Shown: one piece after another, positions 6,876 through 27,001 of the stretch
Position numbering within the stretch: the stretch's first letter is position 1
Layout of the letters: every line of letters starts with the position of its first letter
Source of the DNA: a phage
Direction: 5' to 3' (one strand)
Length of the DNA: 64,000 nucleotides
Sequence record: PZ445527.1
Translations under genes and position numbers: made by a program
Notes under the pieces: model-generated
What the model saw: the letters and a program-made list of their open reading frames with translations, nothing else
The model's database searches: none
What the model was told of the DNA's origin: nothing

Positions 6876-7289
6876 TTAAATCAATTCTATATGTGGGCCA
6901 TCAAAAGTACCACGTTGGATTTCATCCTTATAACTTCCGTTCTGGTTCCAATCACCACCCCATCTAATCTTTACCCCTAGCTCTTCTGCTGCCTTAAAGA
7001 AGGCATCTGCCACTAATTTGAATGATTCTAAATCATTCCAATCAATCTTCCCATTTTTAAGAGGAGCAAAGTCAACGGCCAGCCCTTGTACGTGTTTTGA
7101 CTTGCTCGGGTCTTTTAAAAACGAGGTTCCATTCTTAATATTTTGGGCGCTTTGTTCTAAGGAACGTAATCCTTCTGTAATTGTAAAATCATATGGGCTT
7201 AATTCTAAAGCTCTATGAGTTACTCTTACTAAATCTGGATGAACACCCTTTAATCTATCTAAACTTCTTTTACTAAATTTAAAACTCAT
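6876..7289 (-). CDS. lys: endolysin, L-alanyl-D-glutamate peptidase (M15-type)
   Basis: 137 aa; matches the size and sequence character I recall for T5 endolysin; followed by hairpin terminator. Confidence 0.85.
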   Translation of the reverse strand: MSFKFSKRSLDRLKGVHPDLVRVTHRALELSPYDFTITEGLRSLEQSAQNIKNGTSFLKDPSKSKHVQGLAVDFAPLKNGKIDWNDLESFKLVADAFFKAAEELGVKIRWGGDWNQNGSYKDEIQRGTFDGPHIELI

Positions 7290-7942
7290 ATTGACCTACC
7301 TAAAGACCTCTGTTGTGGGGAACAGAGCTTTGCTAAATATTCCTTGAACTGTTCAGAATCAGCTGTATCTACCGGATTATCTTTCCAAGCAATACCAATG
7401 TACCCAGCATAGATATTTTTTAGATTGAAGTATGGACAAGTGTATATGTAATTAAAAGTAATGTTTTTAAACGCAGGTATATTTAACCCCATATATTTAT
7501 TTACTCTTACACTTAAATCCGATGCGTAGTTAAAGCCCTCTAAATGACGTCTGTATAATTCAGACGTTTTATTTACCGCTTTATCGGCCAAGTCAGCCCT
7601 ATCTAATTGCGCATTACTTTCCCATGCAATAATATTGGAATAATCATTGATAGCATCTGGTTTATACTTGACTACAAAAACAGCATCTGCACCCGTCTGA
7701 GAGAAGAGAACCATGCTCTTTTCCCTCGCCACATTAGGGAAGTTATCTATCCTCTGGGTTTGTAAATCCTGTAAAACTGCAGACGTGGAAAAAGTCTTTA
7801 AGAATGACATCACTTCACTAGTATTACTAACGAATAAGAAAATAATGACAGCAACTAAGATAGTTAGCAGACGTTTAAGAAGCGATGCTGGGTCTTTCGC
7901 TTCTTGGAGCAGTACTGTTAATAATTGTAAGAACTTTTCCAA
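7286..7942 (-). CDS. holin (putative)
   Basis: Immediately upstream of and overlapping endolysin; single TM segment LLTILVAVIIFLFV; start placed at TTG 8 nt after AGGAGG giving 218 aa. Confidence 0.6.
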   Translation of the reverse strand: MEKFLQLLTVLLQEAKDPASLLKRLLTILVAVIIFLFVSNTSEVMSFLKTFSTSAVLQDLQTQRIDNFPNVAREKSMVLFSQTGADAVFVVKYKPDAINDYSNIIAWESNAQLDRADLADKAVNKTSELYRRHLEGFNYASDLSVRVNKYMGLNIPAFKNITFNYIYTCPYFNLKNIYAGYIGIAWKDNPVDTADSEQFKEYLAKLCSPQQRSLGRSI

Positions 7943-8098
7943 TTTGTAACCTCCTCTAACCAGTACCATTATACTAATTTTGGAGGAAAATTTCAATGGG
8001 TTTTTAAATGTTATACTTGGAGCACAAAATTATGTCGTTGTCAAGAAGAATTTTAGATAAAAGAAAAGCCAGGGTACTTAACCCTGGCTTAAAATTAC

Positions 8099-8710: not shown

Positions 8711-9463
8711 TTATCCAACTAGTGGTTCTAGCTCTAAGTCACAGAAGTTATACACTTCTAGTTTAAGGTTATTGATACCATCGAATTTATTAACTAATTC
8801 ATGAGTAATATATTTTGCAGGAATACCACTTTCAGATGGATGATCTGATTTAATAGTGAACTTCTGCTCAGCGGGCACTACATTTACTAGTAAAGAATCC
8901 ATATCTAAATGGTTTGTTTCTCTGAGTAACTCTCCTTCATTGGGGAATCTCACATCTGTTATTACGGCGACATCTGGGTCGTCTTTAGCGATGGATTGCT
9001 CCAGAATTATGAGCCAAATGCGTTCATGTACTAGCTGCCTTCCTAGCTCTGTTCCTACGAGCTGTAACATTTTTCTCGGAGAAATAAATAAACTATAAAG
9101 TCCATCTTCTTTATTCTCTGAGATAAGTTGTTGAGGATTAAGATATTTTTCCTCAAAAATAGGCCAAACGTACGAGAAGTCCTCAAACTTATCGATACCA
9201 TATTTAAACCATACGTCTCTAGCTCGCTCCAATTGATATTGTGTGACCGTAAACCATTGGTCAATCTCTTTCCCCCTGCGCTCTCCTAGAAACTCTGGAG
9301 TTACCCCGAGGATTACGGATGCAAGCTCATAAACTGGTTTAGCAAAACTGTAACGACGTGGTAAACACGTTGGATACGTGTCATTACACCAATCGATAAT
9401 TAATTTTGCAACGGTATCTTTTCCTGCACCTGCCTCGCCATGTAAACCTACTAATACTGACAT
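8711..9463 (-). CDS. deoxynucleoside monophosphate kinase
   Basis: 250 aa; P-loop GEAGAGKDT at N-terminus; size and sequence as T5 dNMP kinase. Confidence 0.8.
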   Translation of the reverse strand: MSVLVGLHGEAGAGKDTVAKLIIDWCNDTYPTCLPRRYSFAKPVYELASVILGVTPEFLGERRGKEIDQWFTVTQYQLERARDVWFKYGIDKFEDFSYVWPIFEEKYLNPQQLISENKEDGLYSLFISPRKMLQLVGTELGRQLVHERIWLIILEQSIAKDDPDVAVITDVRFPNEGELLRETNHLDMDSLLVNVVPAEQKFTIKSDHPSESGIPAKYITHELVNKFDGINNLKLEVYNFCDLELEPLVG

Positions 9464-9816
9464 TAATCTTTCCTATTGTTAATGGGTGGATAGTAAATTA
9501 AGCAACGTTTTTCTTGTAAATCTTGGCGATAGAAGCAAACCATACTAGTCAATCGTGAGATATATGAATATTCTGCCTCCCGACATTTTGCTAACATATT
9601 CCAATCTTTATATGGTACAACAACTACTACACCATCTTCGCCATTTGTAGCTAATTTCTTTTCGAATTTGAAATCAAAGCTACAAGGCTGAAGTCCTTTA
9701 GGCCAATCTACATGAGCTGTTGGTAGCTCATGTGTAGGTTCTGGCTTTACTTCTTGTGCACAGCCTGTGATTGTGATTGCGGCTGTGAGCAGTATTCCAC
9801 ACTTCCAGTTAAACAT
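9463..9816 (-). CDS. lipoprotein (candidate o-spanin)
   Basis: Signal peptide with lipobox ITGC; start embedded in the 3-prime end of the upstream TM/coiled-coil ORF. Confidence 0.5.
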   Translation of the reverse strand: MFNWKCGILLTAAITITGCAQEVKPEPTHELPTAHVDWPKGLQPCSFDFKFEKKLATNGEDGVVVVVPYKDWNMLAKCREAEYSYISRLTSMVCFYRQDLQEKRCLIYYPPINNRKD

Positions 9817-10190
9817 GCTAATCTTTCCTCGAACTCCTTACTCTGCTTTTTAGCAATTAATGTAACCAATCCAGGCTTTGCAGCTATAATATCTTGACGA
9901 CTAAGTGCTTTATCAAGCTGGGAGATCTTCTTATCAAGATCTTGTTGGGAAATATTATGGAAAGTGAAATATTGATTCATACGTGTTTCACGTTGTTCAC
10001 TTTCAACTTTAATCTTGTTTAAGGAAGTTTCTAGAGTAGAGATCTTTTTAGTAGCTACTGCAAGATCACCTGATAGAGTCTCAACCTTATTAACTAAGTG
10101 ATAAGCACCGAATCCGATGCCTATCGCTAGACCTGCTCCCAGGATATACCATTTACCTTGCCATAGAGAACTAATAAAGTTTTTTATCAT
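9747..10190 (-). CDS. TM plus coiled-coil protein (candidate i-spanin)
   Basis: N-terminal TM helix WYILGAGLAIGIGFGAY followed by coiled-coil-like region; overlaps downstream lipoprotein gene by 70 nt. Confidence 0.5.
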   Translation of the reverse strand: MIKNFISSLWQGKWYILGAGLAIGIGFGAYHLVNKVETLSGDLAVATKKISTLETSLNKIKVESEQRETRMNQYFTFHNISQQDLDKKISQLDKALSRQDIIAAKPGLVTLIAKKQSKEFEERLACLTGSVEYCSQPQSQSQAVHKK

Positions 10191-19939: not shown

Positions 19940-20114
19940 GTTGTTTCTCCAGTTTCATTTTTAATAGTTTACAAATGAAATCAACGTCTTCATCCGTGCC
20001 TAGATCTCTATCTTCAAGGGTTGCCTTGAAATTTTTTGTTAGTTCCATAAGAATAACTTCCCTGGAACGACGTGTTGGCGGGGGTGGATGTCTATACATC
20101 TTATTTCCTTAATT

Positions 20115-20189
20115 TGGTGGGTCGGAGGAGAATCTAACTCCTACTCGTTAGCTTATGAGGCCACCGCTTTAACTTTAAGCTACCGACCC
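20115..20189 (-). tRNA. tRNA-Met or Ile2 (anticodon CAT)
   Basis: Acceptor GGGTCGG/CCGACCC perfect, D-stem GCTT/AAGC, anticodon loop CTCATAA, T-arm AGGAG-TTAGATT-CTCCT, CCA. Confidence 0.75.
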
Positions 20190-20195
20190 TATGTT

Positions 20196-20284
20196 TGGCG
20201 GAAGAAGTGGGAATCGAACCCACAAGGCTATATTTCAAACCGACAGATTAGCAATCTGCTGCAATACCGTTATGCTATTCTTCC
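20196..20284 (-). tRNA. tRNA-Ser (anticodon GCT), class II
   Basis: Acceptor GGAAGAA/TTCTTCC, anticodon stem GCAGA/TCTGT loop TTGCTAA, long variable arm, T-arm GTGGG-TTCGATT-CCCAC, CCA. Confidence 0.8.
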
Positions 20285-20298
20285 GAATTTATAAATAT

Positions 20299-20327
20299 AT
20301 TATATTAGAAATTTAGCTTCATAGCAA
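20299..20327 (-). promoter_or_regulatory. sigma70-type promoter directly upstream of tRNA-Ser(GCT)/tRNA-Met
   Basis: TTGCTA, 17 nt spacer, TATAAT, with the tRNA 5-prime end about 15 nt downstream. Confidence 0.65.
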
Positions 20328-20823
20328 GAAAATTTTTCAAGTTTTCGGTAGACATCTCATCCACATCTACAGGAGAAACAAATCCATTTAATTGTCTAGC
20401 AAATTTTTTACCAGCAGGATCATTATCCCCAACAGCTACCAATTTAAAAGGTAGTAATTTCAATTGCTTTAATAGCGCTTTTCCTGGAGAAGAACCCAAC
20501 ATTGCCAAGGCTGGATAACCAGCGTTATGTAACGCAACTGCCTTAAATACAGATTCAGCAATCAATACCACTTTTTCATCTCCATTGAGAGTTTCTAGTC
20601 CCCATACACACTGTGTAGTAGAATAAGTAAAATATCTAGCTTCAAAGGGGCACTTACCATGACCTTTTGGAGCAGAAGGATTATAAGTCTGATAGCCTCT
20701 CAACATCCCAGAGAAGTCATACAATGGGACTGTTAGCCATCCTTCCGGGCTTAACCAGCAATGATATTTATCTGTATCAAACCCTCTAGATAAGAGATGT
20801 TCTGTTAGTTCATCAACAGTCAT
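20305..20823 (-). CDS. hypothetical protein (possible Toprim-like fold)
   Basis: 172 aa; VAVGDNDPAGKKF resembles a DxD Toprim motif, assignment tentative. Confidence 0.5.
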   Translation of the reverse strand: MTVDELTEHLLSRGFDTDKYHCWLSPEGWLTVPLYDFSGMLRGYQTYNPSAPKGHGKCPFEARYFTYSTTQCVWGLETLNGDEKVVLIAESVFKAVALHNAGYPALAMLGSSPGKALLKQLKLLPFKLVAVGDNDPAGKKFARQLNGFVSPVDVDEMSTENLKNFLAMKLNF

Positions 20824-20860
20824 ATTTGATCCCCTAGTTAGTTGTATAAATACATTATAC

Positions 20861-20894
20861 AGAAAAGCCCTGCGCTCTCCAGTGAACGCAGGGC
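20861..20894 (-). terminator. rho-independent terminator
   Basis: Stem GCCCTGCG...CGCAGGGC followed by T-run on minus strand, after SPFH gene stop. Confidence 0.55.
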
Positions 20895-20919
20895 TTACTT
20901 CGAATATTACGTGTGGGTA

Positions 20920-21867
20920 TTACTTGTTACGCATATCCATAATCATTTGGCCATCGTAACCAGTGCCAACCACAGTCTGCGGTACACCACCTTGATACTT
21001 CTGAGCACGAATCATTTCAACTTCTAGTTGCTTCCAGCGAATCATCTCAGGAGTAATGGTACGTTGCAGAGCGGCGTTAGCTTCAGCTTCTTTCTTAGCT
21101 GCGTACAGTTTAGCATCTGCATCACGTTCGTTTGCAATAGCTTGGTTGTTACGAGCTTCACGATCTGCTTCTGCTTGTTTAACCTTCTGCTGTGCTTCTT
21201 GTTCAACACGAGCCAACTCAGCTTTCGCAGCATTAACTTGTTCTTCACGAACTTTGGTATTCTGTACCTGTTCCATGATTACAGGCGGCAAAGTAATATC
21301 CTGAAGGAACACTTGCTTAACTGTGTAACCATAAGGGCGTGCATACTCTTCAACTTCCTGTTGAATTGCAGTTTGCAATTGAGCCTGAATTTTAGCATCA
21401 AACAAATCTTGTGCTTTAGGTACAGACTTACCAAACTCACGAATAGTAGACAGTAATTTTTCAGTTACATACTTGTCTAGTGCCTGATCCTGAGTACCTG
21501 CATTAATACGGTTAATCGGTGCCTTAGAACCATCAAACTGCAACATAACAGTCAGGTCAACAGTGGATTTAAACTTATCCTGACTAGGAACCTGAAGTTT
21601 ATCTAATTTTACAGCAATATCTTTTGTACTGAAAGTATCGAAAGATGCAAACGGGTTTACAATATGGAAACCAGGTAATACTGGATTAGGGTCTACTTTA
21701 CCAAGAAATGTTTGGGTTTTAACCGTACCATCAGAAACAATAGTATATGAATTAAAAGCTAGGATTAAACCTGCTAAACCAACTACAGCACCAATACCCC
21801 AACGTTTAATAGTACGGATTACTTTCTGCTCAGAAGTCAGTTCTTTCATATTTTTAGTAGCAAACAT
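20920..21867 (-). CDS. SPFH/band-7 (HflK/C, stomatin-like) domain protein
   Basis: 315 aa; N-terminal TM helix, SPFH-like core, long Ala/Gln/Glu-rich coiled-coil C-terminus. Confidence 0.65.
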   Translation of the reverse strand: MFATKNMKELTSEQKVIRTIKRWGIGAVVGLAGLILAFNSYTIVSDGTVKTQTFLGKVDPNPVLPGFHIVNPFASFDTFSTKDIAVKLDKLQVPSQDKFKSTVDLTVMLQFDGSKAPINRINAGTQDQALDKYVTEKLLSTIREFGKSVPKAQDLFDAKIQAQLQTAIQQEVEEYARPYGYTVKQVFLQDITLPPVIMEQVQNTKVREEQVNAAKAELARVEQEAQQKVKQAEADREARNNQAIANERDADAKLYAAKKEAEANAALQRTITPEMIRWKQLEVEMIRAQKYQGGVPQTVVGTGYDGQMIMDMRNK

Positions 21868-21901
21868 ATATTTCCTTTGTTTTAGTTACAGTTAATAAAA
21901 T

Positions 21902-21976
21902 TGGCCGAGGTGACAGGATTCGAACCTGCATAAAGGAATTTAGAAGACTCCTGCCTCTCCCTTAGACTACACCCCG
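21902..21976 (-). tRNA. tRNA-Arg (anticodon TCT)
   Basis: Acceptor CGGGGTG/CACCTCG, D-stem GTCT/AGGC, anticodon stem GGAGT/ATTCC loop CTTCTAA, T-arm GCAGG-TTCGAAT-CCTGT, CCA. Confidence 0.8.
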
Positions 21977-22479
21977 TTTAAGTATTTTTAAGAACTCTCG
22001 TAAAAACTCTTAAAAATACAGACGATACCGGGAGAGTCATAAGTCTCACTCATTAAGTATTTCAAGACAAAATACAGTAACGTCTATTATTTTCCAGTTT
22101 AAGTCAGGGTGACTTAGTGGTTATGTCCTGCGGTATATTGAGGACTCGGTTAGGCTTGGGGTCATGACTTCCCGCCTTTTGCTGCTACTCAACAGGAGTT
22201 ATCGCGAATTACCTGTGCTATTGTGCACCATTAGTGACATCTCTCATGCCAGCATTTCCCACTTTGTGGATAGCTTGAAAAACTACTCCGATACGGAGAA
22301 AGAACTTCACTATCCTAGAATACCTTCTAAAGTTCTTCTTTAGCCTGGACATAGTTAAATCGTAATAAAACTATTCAGCAGACCGGTTGGTTAGTCTGGA
22401 ACCAACTACCGCGTGGTTTAGGCAGTGCGCAACTAACCTCGGAAGCTTTTACGTTAAAAGCACCAGTTATCCAGTTCTT

Positions 22480-22552
22480 ACCGACCGTAGGATTCGAACC
22501 TACATCTTCCACCAGTTACGGCTTGATAATACCAATTATACTAGGACGGCAG
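22480..22552 (-). tRNA. tRNA-like element, possibly degenerate
   Basis: Canonical T-arm GTAGG-TTCGAAT-CCTAC and D-loop AATTGGTA, but no convincing anticodon stem and no encoded CCA. Confidence 0.3.
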
Positions 22553-22626
22553 TGTTACTACATAAGTGATTTCCACACCCCACTATTTATAAATTAGAAA
22601 AGAATTACTCTCTAATTTATGAATAT

Positions 22627-22655
22627 ATTATACAGAATTTATAAGCATTTAGCAA
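22627..22655 (-). promoter_or_regulatory. sigma70-type promoter reading into the tRNA-like element and non-coding region
   Basis: TTGCTA, 17 nt spacer, TATAAT. Confidence 0.6.
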
Positions 22656-22663
22656 ATGAATTT

Positions 22664-23098
22664 TTAGAAAAACTCGCTAGCAATCAAGGCGGCTGTTTTA
22701 CCATCATAACGCCCTGTAAACTCTGCCTTAATAGTTTTCATTAAGAGAGCTTTGGTAATACCTGGGTTTAGCTTAACCAATTCTGCAAAGTATTTACGAA
22801 TTTCAGTTTCAGTTAACTGTTGCAGTGCATAATCATGCTCTAAACGCGCTAAAAGATCTAAGTATTCAGCATCAGGGGTATAGTCAACATTCGATTTTTC
22901 AGCAGCAATCCGTGTATTCTCAATTGCTTTGAATTGTGATTTCAACCAGTTAGTAAACTCCAGCTCAGTTACGCAATCTTTATCAATACGTTGCAGGTCT
23001 CCTAGAACCGTACTTAGATGCTTAACTGATACAGCGTCACCACTTTTGCGAGCAGCTTCAATCAACTCTCGCAGTACATAAAGCATATTCATGCCCAT
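22664..23098 (-). CDS. hypothetical protein
   Basis: 144 aa ORF. Confidence 0.55.
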   Translation of the reverse strand: MGMNMLYVLRELIEAARKSGDAVSVKHLSTVLGDLQRIDKDCVTELEFTNWLKSQFKAIENTRIAAEKSNVDYTPDAEYLDLLARLEHDYALQQLTETEIRKYFAELVKLNPGITKALLMKTIKAEFTGRYDGKTAALIASEFF

Positions 23099-23099
23099 T

Positions 23100-23270
23100 A
23101 TTTCATCCCCAATGCTTGGTTGAAAGATTGTTCCGTCATAACTGCTGAGACTTTGGCGAAATCAAACTTTTTAGGGTTAGTAGTGATCTCAGCAACGTTG
23201 GAAGTTTTAACAGTTTTCGTAGTACGAATACCGCGAGTGTTAACACCAATGACGATCAAGTTTTTCATAT
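23100..23270 (-). CDS. small hypothetical protein (below 60 aa track cutoff)
   Basis: ATG at 23270 preceded by GAGAGGAAG RBS and promoter 23300..23328; about 56 aa ending just before the next gene start. Confidence 0.4.
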
Positions 23271-23299
23271 TTCGCTTCCTCTCATTAATTTATGAAAGT

Positions 23300-23328
23300 A
23301 TTATACAGAAGTTTAAGTATTTAAGCAA
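23300..23328 (-). promoter_or_regulatory. sigma70-type promoter
   Basis: TTGCTT, 17 nt spacer, TATAAT. Confidence 0.6.
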
Positions 23329-23336
23329 ATAAATTT

Positions 23337-23786
23337 TTAAGTTTTAGTGACAACAGGCTTATAAAATGTATGTCCCTTAATCTTAGTTGTTTTCTTAAAC
23401 TTCTTTGTCCAGTACGGTTTATCTTTACCACTATGGAAGTATAAAGCTCCATGTGTAGGATCTTGTGGTAAATCAACGTAGTATATCACTCTAGCTAAAT
23501 TCTTGGCGGTTTTCCAAGCCTCATCGGTTTTATCAACTTTTGGTCTCTTAGATACCCAAGAGAACTGGTTAGACTGATATACTACTTTACAGTAGGAATC
23601 TGGGAATTTACCGGAGTTTACACGGTTTTTAGTAACATGTGCAATCGCCGTCATTCCCTTTATGCCCTCACCACGACTTTCGAAATAGATATTTTTAGCA
23701 ATGCAATCTATTTCTTTTGCATCGTGCGATGCCTGACTACTAAAGCTGAAGGTAAGGGCAGCTACTAAAAGCAAAGCTGCCTTCAT
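23337..23786 (-). CDS. secreted cell-wall hydrolase (SleB/CwlJ-like)
   Basis: 149 aa; signal peptide then NIYFESRGE...TAIAHVTKNR...YQSNQFSW resembling the SleB/CwlJ hydrolase domain. Confidence 0.6.
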   Translation of the reverse strand: MKAALLLVAALTFSFSSQASHDAKEIDCIAKNIYFESRGEGIKGMTAIAHVTKNRVNSGKFPDSYCKVVYQSNQFSWVSKRPKVDKTDEAWKTAKNLARVIYYVDLPQDPTHGALYFHSGKDKPYWTKKFKKTTKIKGHTFYKPVVTKT

Positions 23787-23798
23787 TCTTTTTACTCC

Positions 23799-24620
23799 TT
23801 AAAATAGATCATATTCTAATCTATTGGGATTTTCTCGGTATCCATAAGACGTAAGAGTACCCCTCATATACTCTGCGTCAACAGGATTAGATGTTACTAG
23901 AACCACTTTTAGTGGTCTTTGACCTAAAAATAGTATATGATCTAATAAGTCTTTTCCTTGTACCTCTGGATCTCCTAAATCTGAGTCCATAAATAAATAG
24001 GATCCTGTGAAACTAAATATATCTGATAGTTCCAGCGCACCTATAACTGTACGACAAATAATGGACATTTCAGGTAGATCTCTAACATCGTCTATTAGAA
24101 TATTGGTCTGCTTCCCAATTTCTGCATTACATAAACCATTTACTAGTTTTTCTCTTTCCCCTTTAGCTTGTTCGAAAGTGGTGAAGCCAGGAGATACGAA
24201 AAACTTTCCACCTAATGTAATGCTATACACAAAACCCTCTGGGAGTAGTTCTACACCTACGGTTTTATTAGTATTAATCCTATTTAACTTAAAATTTGTC
24301 TCTCTTAGATTAATAATTCTGTTATCCCACGGTATAGTATTTATATGGTCGATCATATAAGGCGGCTCTTCACCATAATGGAGCAACCACGCTATTCGGT
24401 GTCCATAAATAATTGTGGGTTTATTATCTAAGAGCAAACTAACTCTGATGTACCCATCAGAGTTCTTACTACATATTTCTCTCCCAGCATATAGGGTGTG
24501 CCAAGTTTTATTCTTGTATTTATTAGGCTTATAAAATAATTTACCGGTATAAGGATTATACTCTATAATTTCTCGAATATAATCTATATATGGTAGTATT
24601 TGTTTTTGTAATTTACCCAT
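23799..24620 (-). CDS. HNH homing endonuclease (HNH_3-like)
   Basis: 273 aa; GHRIAWLLHYGEEPPYMIDHINTIPWDNRIINLR; own promoter at 24651..24679. Confidence 0.7.
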   Translation of the reverse strand: MGKLQKQILPYIDYIREIIEYNPYTGKLFYKPNKYKNKTWHTLYAGREICSKNSDGYIRVSLLLDNKPTIIYGHRIAWLLHYGEEPPYMIDHINTIPWDNRIINLRETNFKLNRINTNKTVGVELLPEGFVYSITLGGKFFVSPGFTTFEQAKGEREKLVNGLCNAEIGKQTNILIDDVRDLPEMSIICRTVIGALELSDIFSFTGSYLFMDSDLGDPEVQGKDLLDHILFLGQRPLKVVLVTSNPVDAEYMRGTLTSYGYRENPNRLEYDLF

Positions 24621-24650
24621 AATAGCCTCGTTTCATCAATTTAAAAATAT

Positions 24651-24679
24651 ATTATACAGATAACTTAGTAAATTAGCAA
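24651..24679 (-). promoter_or_regulatory. sigma70-type promoter
   Basis: TTGCTA, 17 nt spacer, TATAAT. Confidence 0.6.
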
Positions 24680-25062
24680 ATACATTTTTAAATTGTGAAA
24701 CTAGTAAACCGATAAACAGCCTAGAGGCGCCACAGGCCATATCTTACGAGCCATGTACCTTTGATCTAGGGTTTGAATCATCAACGAATACTTTGCATCT
24801 TTTAGCTTTAGAAGTTTAGAAGTTTGAGTTCTTTAAACTTTTCAGCTTTCATACTTAAATGTTGATCTTTGAAGTTGTGTCGGTAATATCAACGACGCTT
24901 TGTTTTTACGTGTCAGATTAAGTGTCTGATGTAATAAACATAATCTCCAATAGATTATACTTTATAGTATGGTCAGCGGTCTTATTTAACCTCGTATTTC
25001 AACCGCTGCTGCGAGGTAAGATGCTTGGGCTTTCGTCTACCGATTTACTAGCTTTTAAATTA

Positions 25063-25701
25063 TTACTCTACTTCAATGAAGGTAGAGGCGTTAGACTCGG
25101 ACAGAACAAAGTCAACATTTGTTGCAAAGTCCTGATATTCCTCGTCATGCTGTTTAATCAGCTTCTCCAGCTCCAGCGGATCAATCAAGAATGGAGTATT
25201 CTTGAGTTCCAACAGGTTGAGCTGCATTTTAACTTCATCTTCGGAAGTTTTCTTATCGCGGGTAGCCATGCTATCCTGCAAACGCTCATATTTAGCATCA
25301 AACTGTGCTTTCTGCGTATTAAACTTAACTGTAGCGGCATGGAACTGCTTACGCATGTTAGCCAGCAGCTGAGCTTTAAGCTCCATAGAACGCTTAGCTT
25401 CAATTGCTTCCGCAACAGTCATCTTACGAGAGCCAATCTCAACGATTGTTTCCGCATTGCTTTTAATCAGAGCAGCTTTGATACGATCACGCTGGGACAT
25501 CATATCCAGCAGAGACTGGAAATCAGTCTTAATACGGGTAGACAGATCAGCTACTTCGATTGCAGCGCCAACTACAACCTGGTTTTTATCCTTACCTTCA
25601 CCAACAGCGATCAGAAGCTGTTGTTCAGTAGCTTTACGGATTTTAGCTTCCAGAGATTTGATGGTTGCCAGAGCACGAGTTTTAGAAATACGAGTAGTCA
25701 T
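25063..25701 (-). CDS. hypothetical protein
   Basis: 212 aa charged helical ORF on the coding strand. Confidence 0.55.
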   Translation of the reverse strand: MTTRISKTRALATIKSLEAKIRKATEQQLLIAVGEGKDKNQVVVGAAIEVADLSTRIKTDFQSLLDMMSQRDRIKAALIKSNAETIVEIGSRKMTVAEAIEAKRSMELKAQLLANMRKQFHAATVKFNTQKAQFDAKYERLQDSMATRDKKTSEDEVKMQLNLLELKNTPFLIDPLELEKLIKQHDEEYQDFATNVDFVLSESNASTFIEVE

Positions 25702-25754
25702 TATTTGCTTCCTTATATGAAGTTTGAGATTTGAATTTGTTTAAAGTTGGTCTA

Positions 25755-25937
25755 TTACAGACCAATTGCCAGCAGAGTGCGTAGAACAGTATCGTTACTG
25801 TTATCAATTTTAGGATTAGCACGATTTAGCAGATCAAAGATCTTCTGGACACCTGATTGACGTTCAGCCATACGACGGCTACCCAGATTACGAGTAGCTT
25901 TCTTACCATTTTTACGAACATTTTTAGATACTGGCAT
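25755..25937 (-). CDS. small basic protein
   Basis: 60 aa, Lys/Arg-rich; promoter 25978..26007. Confidence 0.45.
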   Translation of the reverse strand: MPVSKNVRKNGKKATRNLGSRRMAERQSGVQKIFDLLNRANPKIDNSNDTVLRTLLAIGL

Positions 25938-25977
25938 ATTTGTTTTCCTTTTATTGTTCTCTCAAATTTATGAATAT

Positions 25978-26007
25978 ATTATACAGAATTTTGGGGGCCG
26001 GAAGCAA
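25978..26007 (-). promoter_or_regulatory. sigma70-type promoter
   Basis: TTGCTT, 18 nt spacer, TATAAT. Confidence 0.55.
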
Positions 26008-26008
26008 A

Positions 26009-26710
26009 TCAAATTTTCATTTTTTCGATCATAGCTGCAACACAATAGCTCTCAACTAAGGCATCGAATGCTGGGTCATGTTTAACTGGGTAGATCCCAT
26101 AACGAATGGTGTCCATCTTCTCCATTTTAGCTTTTGCCCAGCTAATCCCCTCTGCTTCTAGGTCTTTGTAGTTATAACCAGCCTGCATCCAGAGATTGCG
26201 GAGAGATCGAACATTACCCAAGTTCCAGAATTTCCACGGAACTATTTCTTCATTGGTTCCAGCATGGAAAGTGTTTGCAGAGTAGATAGTCATATCAAAC
26301 TCTGGGCCGTTGCCATAATACAAAGCATTCTCTCCTAGAGCCAACTCCATAATATTTTGAGCCATAGAGTAAGCAGCATAGTTAGAGCCGAGTTTATTAG
26401 TACAATGATGTTTACCGTTTTGGAATGCAATCAGCTTTGGATTACGTTCGTTCATAGCTTCCATAATGTGGAGAGCAGACGGACTATTTTTAGCTTGATC
26501 CATCCAGAATGCTAGAGTAGATGCTGTAACTTTAGCACCAGAATTAAACTGATCTTGCACATCCAAAGTAACAAATACTAGATCAGGATCTTTATCAATT
26601 CCGTGCATAGCCACAAAAGCGAAAGAAGGCATTGCGATATGAGTAGTACCACAATCTCCTGGAGTTCCTAGAGATTCAATATCTAGCATACCAAATGGTT
26701 TTACTTTCAT
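26009..26710 (-). CDS. DEDD-type 3-prime-5-prime exonuclease (putative)
   Basis: 233 aa; N-terminal MLDIESLG (Exo I D-x-E) and C-terminal HDPAFDAL (H-x4-D) consistent with DEDDh exonucleases. Confidence 0.55.
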   Translation of the reverse strand: MKVKPFGMLDIESLGTPGDCGTTHIAMPSFAFVAMHGIDKDPDLVFVTLDVQDQFNSGAKVTASTLAFWMDQAKNSPSALHIMEAMNERNPKLIAFQNGKHHCTNKLGSNYAAYSMAQNIMELALGENALYYGNGPEFDMTIYSANTFHAGTNEEIVPWKFWNLGNVRSLRNLWMQAGYNYKDLEAEGISWAKAKMEKMDTIRYGIYPVKHDPAFDALVESYCVAAMIEKMKI

Positions 26711-26738
26711 AACTTATCCTTTATTGTGTAGAAAACTA

Positions 26739-26960
26739 TTAAAGAGCTGTCTCTTTAATAGACTCCCACTTCTTGGGGTCTTTAAAACCAGGAAGCATAC
26801 CCTCACTGACATCCCAGTTCTCCTCCACATAGAGGTCCTCTAAGTCTAACTCATCTACTGCTAGATCCATTACCTCATGACTAGAAAGTCGTGTATAATC
26901 CCTAGCTGACTTATGGGTACTAGCACGGTTAAAATCATTCTTTGCTACAAAATTACGCAT
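26739..26960 (-). CDS. hypothetical protein
   Basis: 73 aa ORF. Confidence 0.4.
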   Translation of the reverse strand: MRNFVAKNDFNRASTHKSARDYTRLSSHEVMDLAVDELDLEDLYVEENWDVSEGMLPGFKDPKKWESIKETAL

Positions 26961-26969
26961 AGTTTCTCC

Positions 26970-26993
26970 AAATAAGAGGGGCTTTCGCCCCCT
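26970..26993 (-). terminator. rho-independent terminator
   Basis: GC-rich hairpin AGGGGGC...GCCCCCT with T-rich tail on minus strand. Confidence 0.5.
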
Positions 26994-27001
26994 GATTTAA
27001 A

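Follow-up and report, generated by a model that had tools for sequence, protein, structure and literature searches.

A predicted exported Hydrolase_2 enzyme, orthologous to T5.083, encoded apart from the lysis cassette of a T5-like phage

The window, a stretch of 64,000 nucleotides of phage DNA (PZ445527.1), comes from a T5-like phage (Tequintavirus) and encodes a member of the SleB/CwlJ family of cell-wall hydrolases that is the orthologue of T5.083 of phage T5. We consider the following account as a whole likely: the protein would be an exported Hydrolase_2 enzyme with an accessory part in lysis, dispensable in the laboratory. The gene is real, was correctly read in the initial annotation, and is already known from annotation and from published comparative notes. 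The suggestion made there, that the phage has a second enzyme acting on peptidoglycan besides its M15 endolysin, agrees with the sequence, the predicted fold, the conserved residues, and the precedent of a related phage enzyme, Cwh of Aeromonas phage ASG01, all of which point to a hydrolase of this kind.

The gene and its translation signals are as follows.

23337..23786, minus strand: hydrolase coding sequence, 149 aa plus stop codon, ATG start; orthologue of T5.083; single-domain Hydrolase_2
23361..23672, minus strand: Pfam Hydrolase_2 envelope (profile match), aa 39-142
23795..23800, minus strand: Shine-Dalgarno sequence AAGGAG, 8 nt 5' of the hydrolase ATG, overlapping the TAA stop of the upstream ORF

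Family, fold, and orthology with T5.083

Score, coverage, fold, and motif all place the protein in the Pfam family Hydrolase_2 (PF07486, 'Cell Wall Hydrolase'), which describes the catalytic domain of SleB and CwlJ, and we hold this assignment to be practically certain. It scores 89.5 bits (E = 2.4e-25), where the gathering score of the family is 27 bits, and the alignment spans profile positions 1-100 of 100. This is the sole Pfam match in the 149 residues. The sequence also matches PHROG 938, 'endolysin' (E = 5.6e-30), and the SleB catalytic-domain structures 4f55 and 4fet (E = 3e-8 and 1e-7, respectively). An AlphaFold2 model built from 34 homologues has a mean pLDDT of 90.7 and a pTM of 0.82. 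When searched against the PDB with Foldseek, this model retrieved the same two structures (TM 0.71-0.79, target-normalised; rmsd 2.4-2.9 Å over ~120 columns) and no fold besides SleB catalytic domains with E < 1. The initial annotation had read SleB/CwlJ-like motifs in the protein and had proposed a search against the Hydrolase_2 profile, in which it might have matched no cell-wall hydrolase; the strong match, together with PHROG 938 and the agreement with 4f55 and 4fet in both sequence and fold, bears that reading out.

A narrower classification, SleB in the strict sense, was rejected on three grounds. Against the NCBIfam equivalog TIGR02869, the protein scores 50.8 bits for a cut-off of 236.5 bits. 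It has no N-terminal peptidoglycan-binding domain, since just 19 signal residues and ~8 others precede the conserved core. Finally, the enterobacterial hosts of the phage have neither a spore cortex nor muramic-delta-lactam.

The hydrolase is 97% identical (144/149 residues) to T5.083 (YP_006911.1), named 'endolysin' in RefSeq, and nothing of substance differs between the two genes themselves. Its 2.1-kb surroundings match 445 phage records and are 98.8-98.9% identical to those in the Salmonella phages vB_SLGBLB0002 and Shivani (Tequintavirus). Full-length copies were found by tblastn in 442 phage records, T5-like phages included, and copies with at least 60% identity in ~520 records; weaker relatives occur in many other phages of Gram-negative bacteria. 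The copies in T5-like phages come from phages of Escherichia, Salmonella, Shigella, Yersinia, Citrobacter, and Klebsiella, and the recovered T5-like relatives, a Pectobacterium phage among them, are 58-98% identical to the hydrolase. In Demerecviridae records the orthologues carry varied labels: 'cell wall hydrolase', 'cell wall hydrolase SleB', 'putative cell wall hydrolase', 'SleB-like protein', 'spore cortex-lytic enzyme precursor', and 'hypothetical protein'.

Previous reports had noticed this gene in related phages. The genome paper of AKFV33, in 2012, counted a 'cell wall hydrolase SleB', the lysozyme, and the holin among the products of the early region (PMC3326045). A comparison of Salmonella phages published in 2024 described in Tequintavirus an M15 endolysin whose gene adjoins that of the holin, together with a distant second 'endolysin' that has a SleB domain, and left undecided which of them these phages mainly use (PMC11180984). 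A literature search by the locus tag T5.083 found no experimental study of T5.083 itself. In a CRISPRi-ART screen of T5, the gene was nevertheless scored, as 'Not Fit', which means that its knock-down had no measurable cost (PMC11879866 supplement). In the same screen, lys was also 'Not Fit', as were many virion genes known to be essential, whereas the holin C1 was 'Fit'. Since only 17 T5 genes were 'Fit', the sensitivity of the screen is low, and the result for T5.083 is weak evidence (PMC11879866).

Signal sequence and conserved residues

The following features of the protein are used below; the cleavage site and the disulfide are predictions.

23730..23786, minus strand: predicted Sec signal peptide, aa 1-19 (MKAALLLVAALTFSFSSQA), putatively cut after Ala19 (S-Q-A/S)
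23340..23729, minus strand: mature hydrolase under the predicted cleavage, aa 20-149, ~15.0 kDa, pI 9.7, lysine-rich C-terminus
23703..23705, minus strand: codon of Cys28, probable disulfide partner of Cys66
23679..23681, minus strand: codon of Glu36 in the motif NIYFE36SRGE, putative catalytic glutamate
23589..23591, minus strand: codon of Cys66, probable disulfide partner of Cys28

The N-terminus reads MK, AALLLVAALTFSF, and SSQA/SHD (the slash marks the predicted cut), and follows the n/h/c pattern of Sec signal peptides: a basic n-region, a hydrophobic core of 13 residues (Kyte-Doolittle 2.96 over 9 aa), and a polar c-region in which Ser occupies -3 and Ala occupies -1. Nearly all the full-length sequences among 81 database homologues begin with a hydrophobic stretch before the conserved core. 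These two observations are in line with the signal peptide proposed in the initial annotation, which we also predict. Among T5-like relatives (at least ~58% identity), the cleavage site has a small residue at -3 and Ala at -1, and the other positions vary (SQA/S, SHA/T, AYA/T, SYA/S, VQA/Q, AIA/S). In an alignment made via the Cwh orthologue of phage pAh6-C, the Ala19 site falls where the 23-aa signal peptide of ASG01 Cwh ends. That peptide was predicted to be cleavable by SignalP 5 (PMC10975977). Judging from these sequence features, export of the hydrolase to the periplasm is very likely. Signal peptidase I would most likely cut after Ala19, a position that rests on heuristics and homology. 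The protein was rejected as a lipoprotein: neither the signal sequence nor the residues directly behind it include a Cys, and the first Cys is residue 28.

The same segment might be read as the uncleaved anchor of a SAR endolysin, which would stay inactive and tethered to the inner membrane until the holin collapses the membrane potential and sets it free. Residues 3-20, 18 in all, carry no charge and are rich in Ala, Ser, and Thr, in the manner of SAR domains, the features of which are known from P1 Lyz and R21. The AlphaFold2 model shows residues 2-36 as a single continuous helix, and the mechanism would explain how the enzyme can be made early without premature lysis. We nonetheless find this reading improbable. 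The strongly hydrophobic core covers just ~13 residues and is followed by a polar c-region with small residues at -3 and -1, an AXA-like site kept in the T5-like relatives; the N-terminal segment has no Cys for a disulfide caging of the P1 Lyz type; and in ASG01 Cwh the 23-aa signal peptide is called cleavable by SignalP 5.

We analysed residue conservation in 82 sequences, with identities down to 32%. Tyr34, Glu36, Arg38, Gly39, Asn54, Arg55, Cys66, Val68, Val69, Gln74, Trp77, His139, and Phe141 are invariant or nearly so. Glu36 is kept in all 81 sequences that cover its column and, in the alignment with 4f55 and 4fet, faces the first Glu of YGESRGE in SleB, which we take, with this alignment, to be the catalytic Glu of that enzyme. 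The alignment, the invariance, and secondary citations suggest that Glu36 is catalytic. The catalytic glutamate of SleB was reported to be essential for its lytic transglycosylase activity (PMC12331253). Position 28 is Cys in 80 of the 82 sequences (the other 2 have gaps) and Leu in Bacillus SleB, and position 66 is Cys in all 82 and Gly in Bacillus SleB. The two residues probably form a stabilising disulfide in the oxidising periplasm: the conservation of the pair in the exported forms of phages of Gram-negative bacteria, and its absence from the SleB of Gram-positives, fit a periplasmic protein.

The closest experimental evidence comes from Cwh (ORF72) of the Aeromonas phage ASG01, which consists of a signal peptide and a Hydrolase_2 domain and lyses E. 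coli when expressed alone, without a holin (PMC10975977). Alanine changes at C34, P68, V57, and V74 of Cwh abolish lysis, and those at E42, N60, R61, C72, V75, and S82 lower it (PMC10975977). We compared Cwh with the hydrolase through gp31, its orthologue in phage pAh6-C (Chaseviridae), which in tblastn is 32% identical to the hydrolase over the N-terminal 84 residues (E = 1e-8). With a constant offset of 6, the Cwh residue numbers map onto C28, E36, V51, N54, R55, P62, C66, V68, V69, and S76. At this offset, and judged via gp31, all the residues mutated in Cwh are identical in the hydrolase, save V54, which is Ile.

These patterns also bear on whether the gene might be a catalytically dead or decaying remnant, as the lack of a phenotype in the T5 knock-down could suggest. 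This is very improbable for an intact ORF with a strong ribosome-binding site, whose product is 58-98% identical across T5-like relatives, has copies in T5-like phages of six host genera, keeps its core residues invariant in relatives down to 32% identity, and gives a confident model (pLDDT 90.7).

Position in the early region and transcription

In this part of the window, every gene is encoded on the minus strand. The lysis cassette and the immediate surroundings of the hydrolase gene include the following features.

6876..7289, minus strand: main endolysin, Peptidase_M15_4, EndoT5-type, with no export signal or hydrophobic N-terminus
7286..7996, minus strand: T-type holin of the lysis cassette
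9463..9816 and 9747..10190, minus strand: Rz-like spanins of the lysis cassette
23300..23328, minus strand: equivalent of T5 promoter P-D/E 33, TTGCTT-17-TATAAT, identical to P-D/E 33
23799..24620, minus strand: upstream ORF, 273 aa, HNH_3 nuclease domain fused to a cREC_REC domain
24651..24679, minus strand: T5-type sigma-70 early promoter motif, TTGCTA-17-TATAAT, preceding ORF 23799..24620

The hydrolase gene is 13-16 kb from the genes of the M15 endolysin, the holin, and the spanins, on the same strand, and the part of the genome in which it lies is the counterpart of the early region in T5. The initial annotation had placed it far from the lysis cassette and among early genes, and both statements hold. 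The canonical role of a holin-dependent cassette endolysin was rejected for this protein, which begins with a hydrophobic signal and whose gene is 13-16 kb away from that of the holin; it is the M15 peptidase at 6876..7289 that takes this role.

The hydrolase could be a periplasmic murein-remodelling enzyme that acts early and has little part in the final lysis, for example by hindering superinfecting phages, by relaxing the wall during reprogramming of the infected cell, or by releasing muropeptides. Such a role would suit a gene that is placed in the early region at a distance from the cassette genes (holin, endolysin, and spanins), is conserved across T5-like phages, and yet has no knock-down phenotype in T5. 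It would also suit the distant homologues of unrelated large uncultured phages, which are embedded among nucleotide-metabolism or early-type genes. However, the holin and endolysin genes of T5-like phages are also in the early region, so that location alone says little on timing and does not set the hydrolase apart. Moreover, the sole studied relative of the same architecture, ASG01 Cwh, lyses E. coli by itself, and the specific alternative functions are without direct support. We regard a remodelling enzyme as unlikely.

Another alternative is a virion-associated enzyme that would open the wall at DNA entry. Muralytic virion proteins are common among phages, and Hydrolase_2 domains are found inside large PHROG families of 'endolysin' and structural proteins. 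However, the gene belongs to the early region instead of the structural module, and a Sec signal peptide directs the protein out of the cytoplasm, where virions are assembled. The protein is also absent among the virion proteins identified in AKFV33, for which four gel bands were analysed, and wall penetration in T5 is credited to the tail-tip protein pb2. An enzyme of the virion is extremely improbable.

The hydrolase gene adjoins a tRNA cluster and stands between this cluster and the nucleotide-metabolism genes. Downstream are a DUF7616 gene, a YqeY/GatB-like gene, and tRNAs; an exonuclease gene is found upstream. An Rfam scan of 20000..27000 gave only tRNAs and no RNA element at the hydrolase gene. 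On the downstream side the order is that of T5, where T5.083 is followed by T5.082 (DUF7616) and T5.081 (YqeY-like), with the same flanking promoters. The upstream partner differs: the slot held in T5 by the 105-aa T5.084 is occupied in the window by the 273-aa HNH-cREC fusion at 23799..24620.

We searched for promoters with the motif TTGCT(A/T)-N17-TATAAT, modelled on T5 early promoters. It occurs 20 times in the window, for 1.1 expected, and is always co-oriented with the genes. A generic promoter scan was not enriched over shuffles (7 found for 9.6 expected), so that only the T5-specific motif is informative. The initial annotation gave the hydrolase gene its own nearby promoter, which is correct in part: T5-type motifs do flank the gene, but none is private to it. 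The one at 23300..23328 begins 9 nt past the hydrolase stop and serves the downstream DUF7616 and YqeY-like genes, not the hydrolase. Upstream, the closest motif is the one at 24651..24679, in front of ORF 23799..24620; compared with the T5 promoter annotated before T5.084, it has identical hexamers and differs at 2 spacer positions. Between 23787 and 24650, neither the generic scan nor the T5-motif scan found a promoter. The hydrolase start codon is 12 nt past the end of ORF 23799..24620 and is coupled to its stop. Given the lack of a motif in this interval, the coupled start, and the promoter copies on both sides, the two genes are probably co-transcribed, and the hydrolase most likely comes second in an early transcript of two genes from 24651..24679, with the promoter at 23300..23328 marking the 3' boundary of the unit. 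A terminator-like hairpin at 24441..24464, inside the upstream ORF, was discarded: its T-tract is poor, and such sites occur at chance count.

Proposed role and comparison with known systems

We propose the following scenario. Host RNA polymerase would read the hydrolase gene and the preceding ORF from the early promoter at 24651..24679, and the 149-aa pre-protein would be exported by the Sec system and cut by signal peptidase I after Ala19. This would release to the periplasm a basic, single-domain enzyme of 15 kDa, to be oxidised to its Cys28-Cys66 disulfide form, which could reach the murein without the holin. There it would cleave the murein glycan strands via Glu36, possibly by the lytic transglycosylase reaction of SleB. 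The enzyme would weaken the sacculus, or help to dismantle it, beside the cytoplasmic, holin-dependent M15 L-alanyl-D-glutamate peptidase, and the pair would act on the peptides of the sacculus as well as on its glycans. Under laboratory conditions the hydrolase would be dispensable.

The accessory role in lysis is the part of this scenario on which we are more reserved: we find it somewhat more probable than the contrary. A murein hydrolase that is produced early and exported freely should put the cell at risk of lysing too soon; a low dose, dependence on the membrane potential, or substrate access might restrain it. Secreted lysins of phages of Gram-positive bacteria and SAR endolysins are restrained until the membrane is depolarised. 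In addition, the gene is outside the cassette, and its distant relatives in large phages are not beside holins, and both facts could indicate a function outside lysis. A variant of the scenario, which we judge unlikely, has the hydrolase either as a back-up or partner of EndoT5, pre-placed early in the periplasm and triggered only on depolarisation of the membrane by the holin, or in an early role outside lysis, such as a remodelling of the wall against superinfection. As a back-up of EndoT5, it would explain why the knock-down of the holin costs T5 fitness and that of either muralytic gene alone does not. If the early non-lysis role were true, it would possibly be shared by the look-alikes found among the nucleotide-metabolism genes of unrelated large phages.

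Returning to the accessory lysis enzyme that we favour, this phage, like all T5 relatives, has two chemically different wall-degrading enzymes. The M15 enzyme is a cytoplasmic peptidase that needs a holin, whereas the exported enzyme with the SleB fold is predicted to need none. Its mature, basic 15-kDa domain is a candidate enzybiotic with a fold that is little characterised against Gram-negative murein. Beyond correct annotation, the finding matters little.

Among known systems, ASG01 Cwh resembles the hydrolase in its parts: both have a predicted signal peptide and a single Hydrolase_2 domain, and they share the Cys pair, the Glu, the Asn-Arg, the Pro, the Val-Val, and the Ser discussed above. 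They differ in context, because Cwh is presented as the sole recognisable lysis gene of ASG01, whereas the hydrolase coexists with a holin, an M15 endolysin, and spanins. With SleB and CwlJ of Bacillus the hydrolase shares the fold of the catalytic domain and the motif Y-x-E-(S/A)-R-G-E, and CwlJ is, like the hydrolase, made of a single domain. Bacillus SleB, in contrast, has no equivalent of the Cys28/Cys66 pair and has an N-terminal peptidoglycan-binding domain that the hydrolase lacks. The settings are also different: spore germination for SleB, and for the hydrolase the phage infection of a Gram-negative cell, in a host without the partner YpeB. SleB and CwlJ cut at muramic-delta-lactam, a mark specific to the spore cortex, which is absent from the murein of E. 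coli and Salmonella (PMC13556211), and the bond specificity of SleB is therefore not simply transferable to the hydrolase.

Two other systems resemble the hydrolase in its proposed function and not in descent. Tgl of Kayvirus is a secreted lytic enzyme with lytic-transglycosylase motifs and an early-type promoter, described as an additional endolysin beside LysK (PMC7150955). Like the hydrolase in our scenario, it is a second signal-peptide-bearing muralytic enzyme with an early-type promoter, encoded apart from the main endolysin and proposed to be its partner. However, its motifs are of the IsaA/SceD type, its fold is unrelated, and its host is Gram-positive, so that the analogy is only functional. 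Lys44 of phage fOg44, a phage lysin exported by Sec, likewise shares with the hydrolase its functional logic only.

The hydrolase gene in distant phages and in a T5 knock-down screen

Homologues of the hydrolase are found well beyond its close relatives. Four metagenomic contigs from large uncultured phages (L004, L006, L007, and L008) encode Hydrolase_2 proteins predicted to be exported, with 41-44% identity to that of the window. Their neighbours are genes for ribonucleotide reductase, Thy1, a metallophosphatase, a dGTP diphosphohydrolase, RNase H, and UvdE, and no recognisable holin was seen beside the hydrolase gene in any of the four. T5-like phages are thus not alone in having the gene outside their lysis cassettes.

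In the CRISPRi-ART screen of T5 (PMC11879866), the phage paid a fitness cost when its holin, C1, was knocked down; knock-down of the main M15 endolysin (lys) had no measurable cost, and neither had that of T5.083, the orthologue of the hydrolase. Redundancy between the two wall-degrading enzymes would predict this absence of cost when either lys or T5.083 is targeted alone. The low sensitivity of the screen, which yielded 17 Fit genes, accounts for the result equally well.

Promoter motifs and stretches between coding genes

The motif TTGCT[A/T]-N17-TATAAT, which resembles T5 early promoters, occurs 20 times in the whole window, against 1.1 sites expected by chance. All 16 sites at 2.7-37.9 kb are on the - strand and the four from 40.6 kb on are all on the + strand, a switch that parallels the divergent gene orientation in the window. 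Two stretches between coding genes lie on either side of the hydrolase gene:

21977..22660, - strand: region with the Band_7 'lipoprotein' gene on one side and the YqeY-like gene on the other
24621..25062: 440-nt stretch without a called gene, flanked by the HNH-cREC ORF and the T5.085-like gene

The T5 region matching the first is annotated as a tRNA-Arg together with 'RNAX, stable RNA with unknown functions' (719 nt). At or near this region, Rfam matched only two tRNAs in the window, at 21905..21976 (49 bits) and, weakly, at 22479..22550 (35.5 bits). The second stretch is 97-100% identical among the window, T5, and Salmonella phage Shivani, exceeds the adjacent coding DNA in conservation, and had no match in Rfam.

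The HNH-cREC ORF upstream of the hydrolase gene

The ORF preceding the hydrolase gene has a hairpin inside its coding sequence:

23799..24620, - strand: HNH-cREC ORF, one 273-aa protein
24441..24464, - strand: 10-bp hairpin internal to the HNH-cREC coding sequence

The Shivani record labels this hairpin as a terminator. Its T-tract is poor, and such sites are no more numerous than expected by chance.

Profile matches place an HNH_3 nuclease domain at residues 73-107 of the protein and a cREC_REC 'cyclic-phosphate processing receiver' domain at residues 173-257. The equivalent ORF of phage HildyBeyeler (BASEL record) is labelled 'intein-containing', with residues 3-171 as the intein; the ...GKQ|TN junction lacks the usual His-Asn. 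The T5 counterpart in the same slot, T5.084, has 105 aa and the cREC domain alone, to which the window ORF adds HNH_3. Because the two cREC domains are just 51% identical amid flanking DNA that is 97-100% identical between the window and T5, the sequence comparison suggests that an entire cassette was exchanged or fused at this slot.
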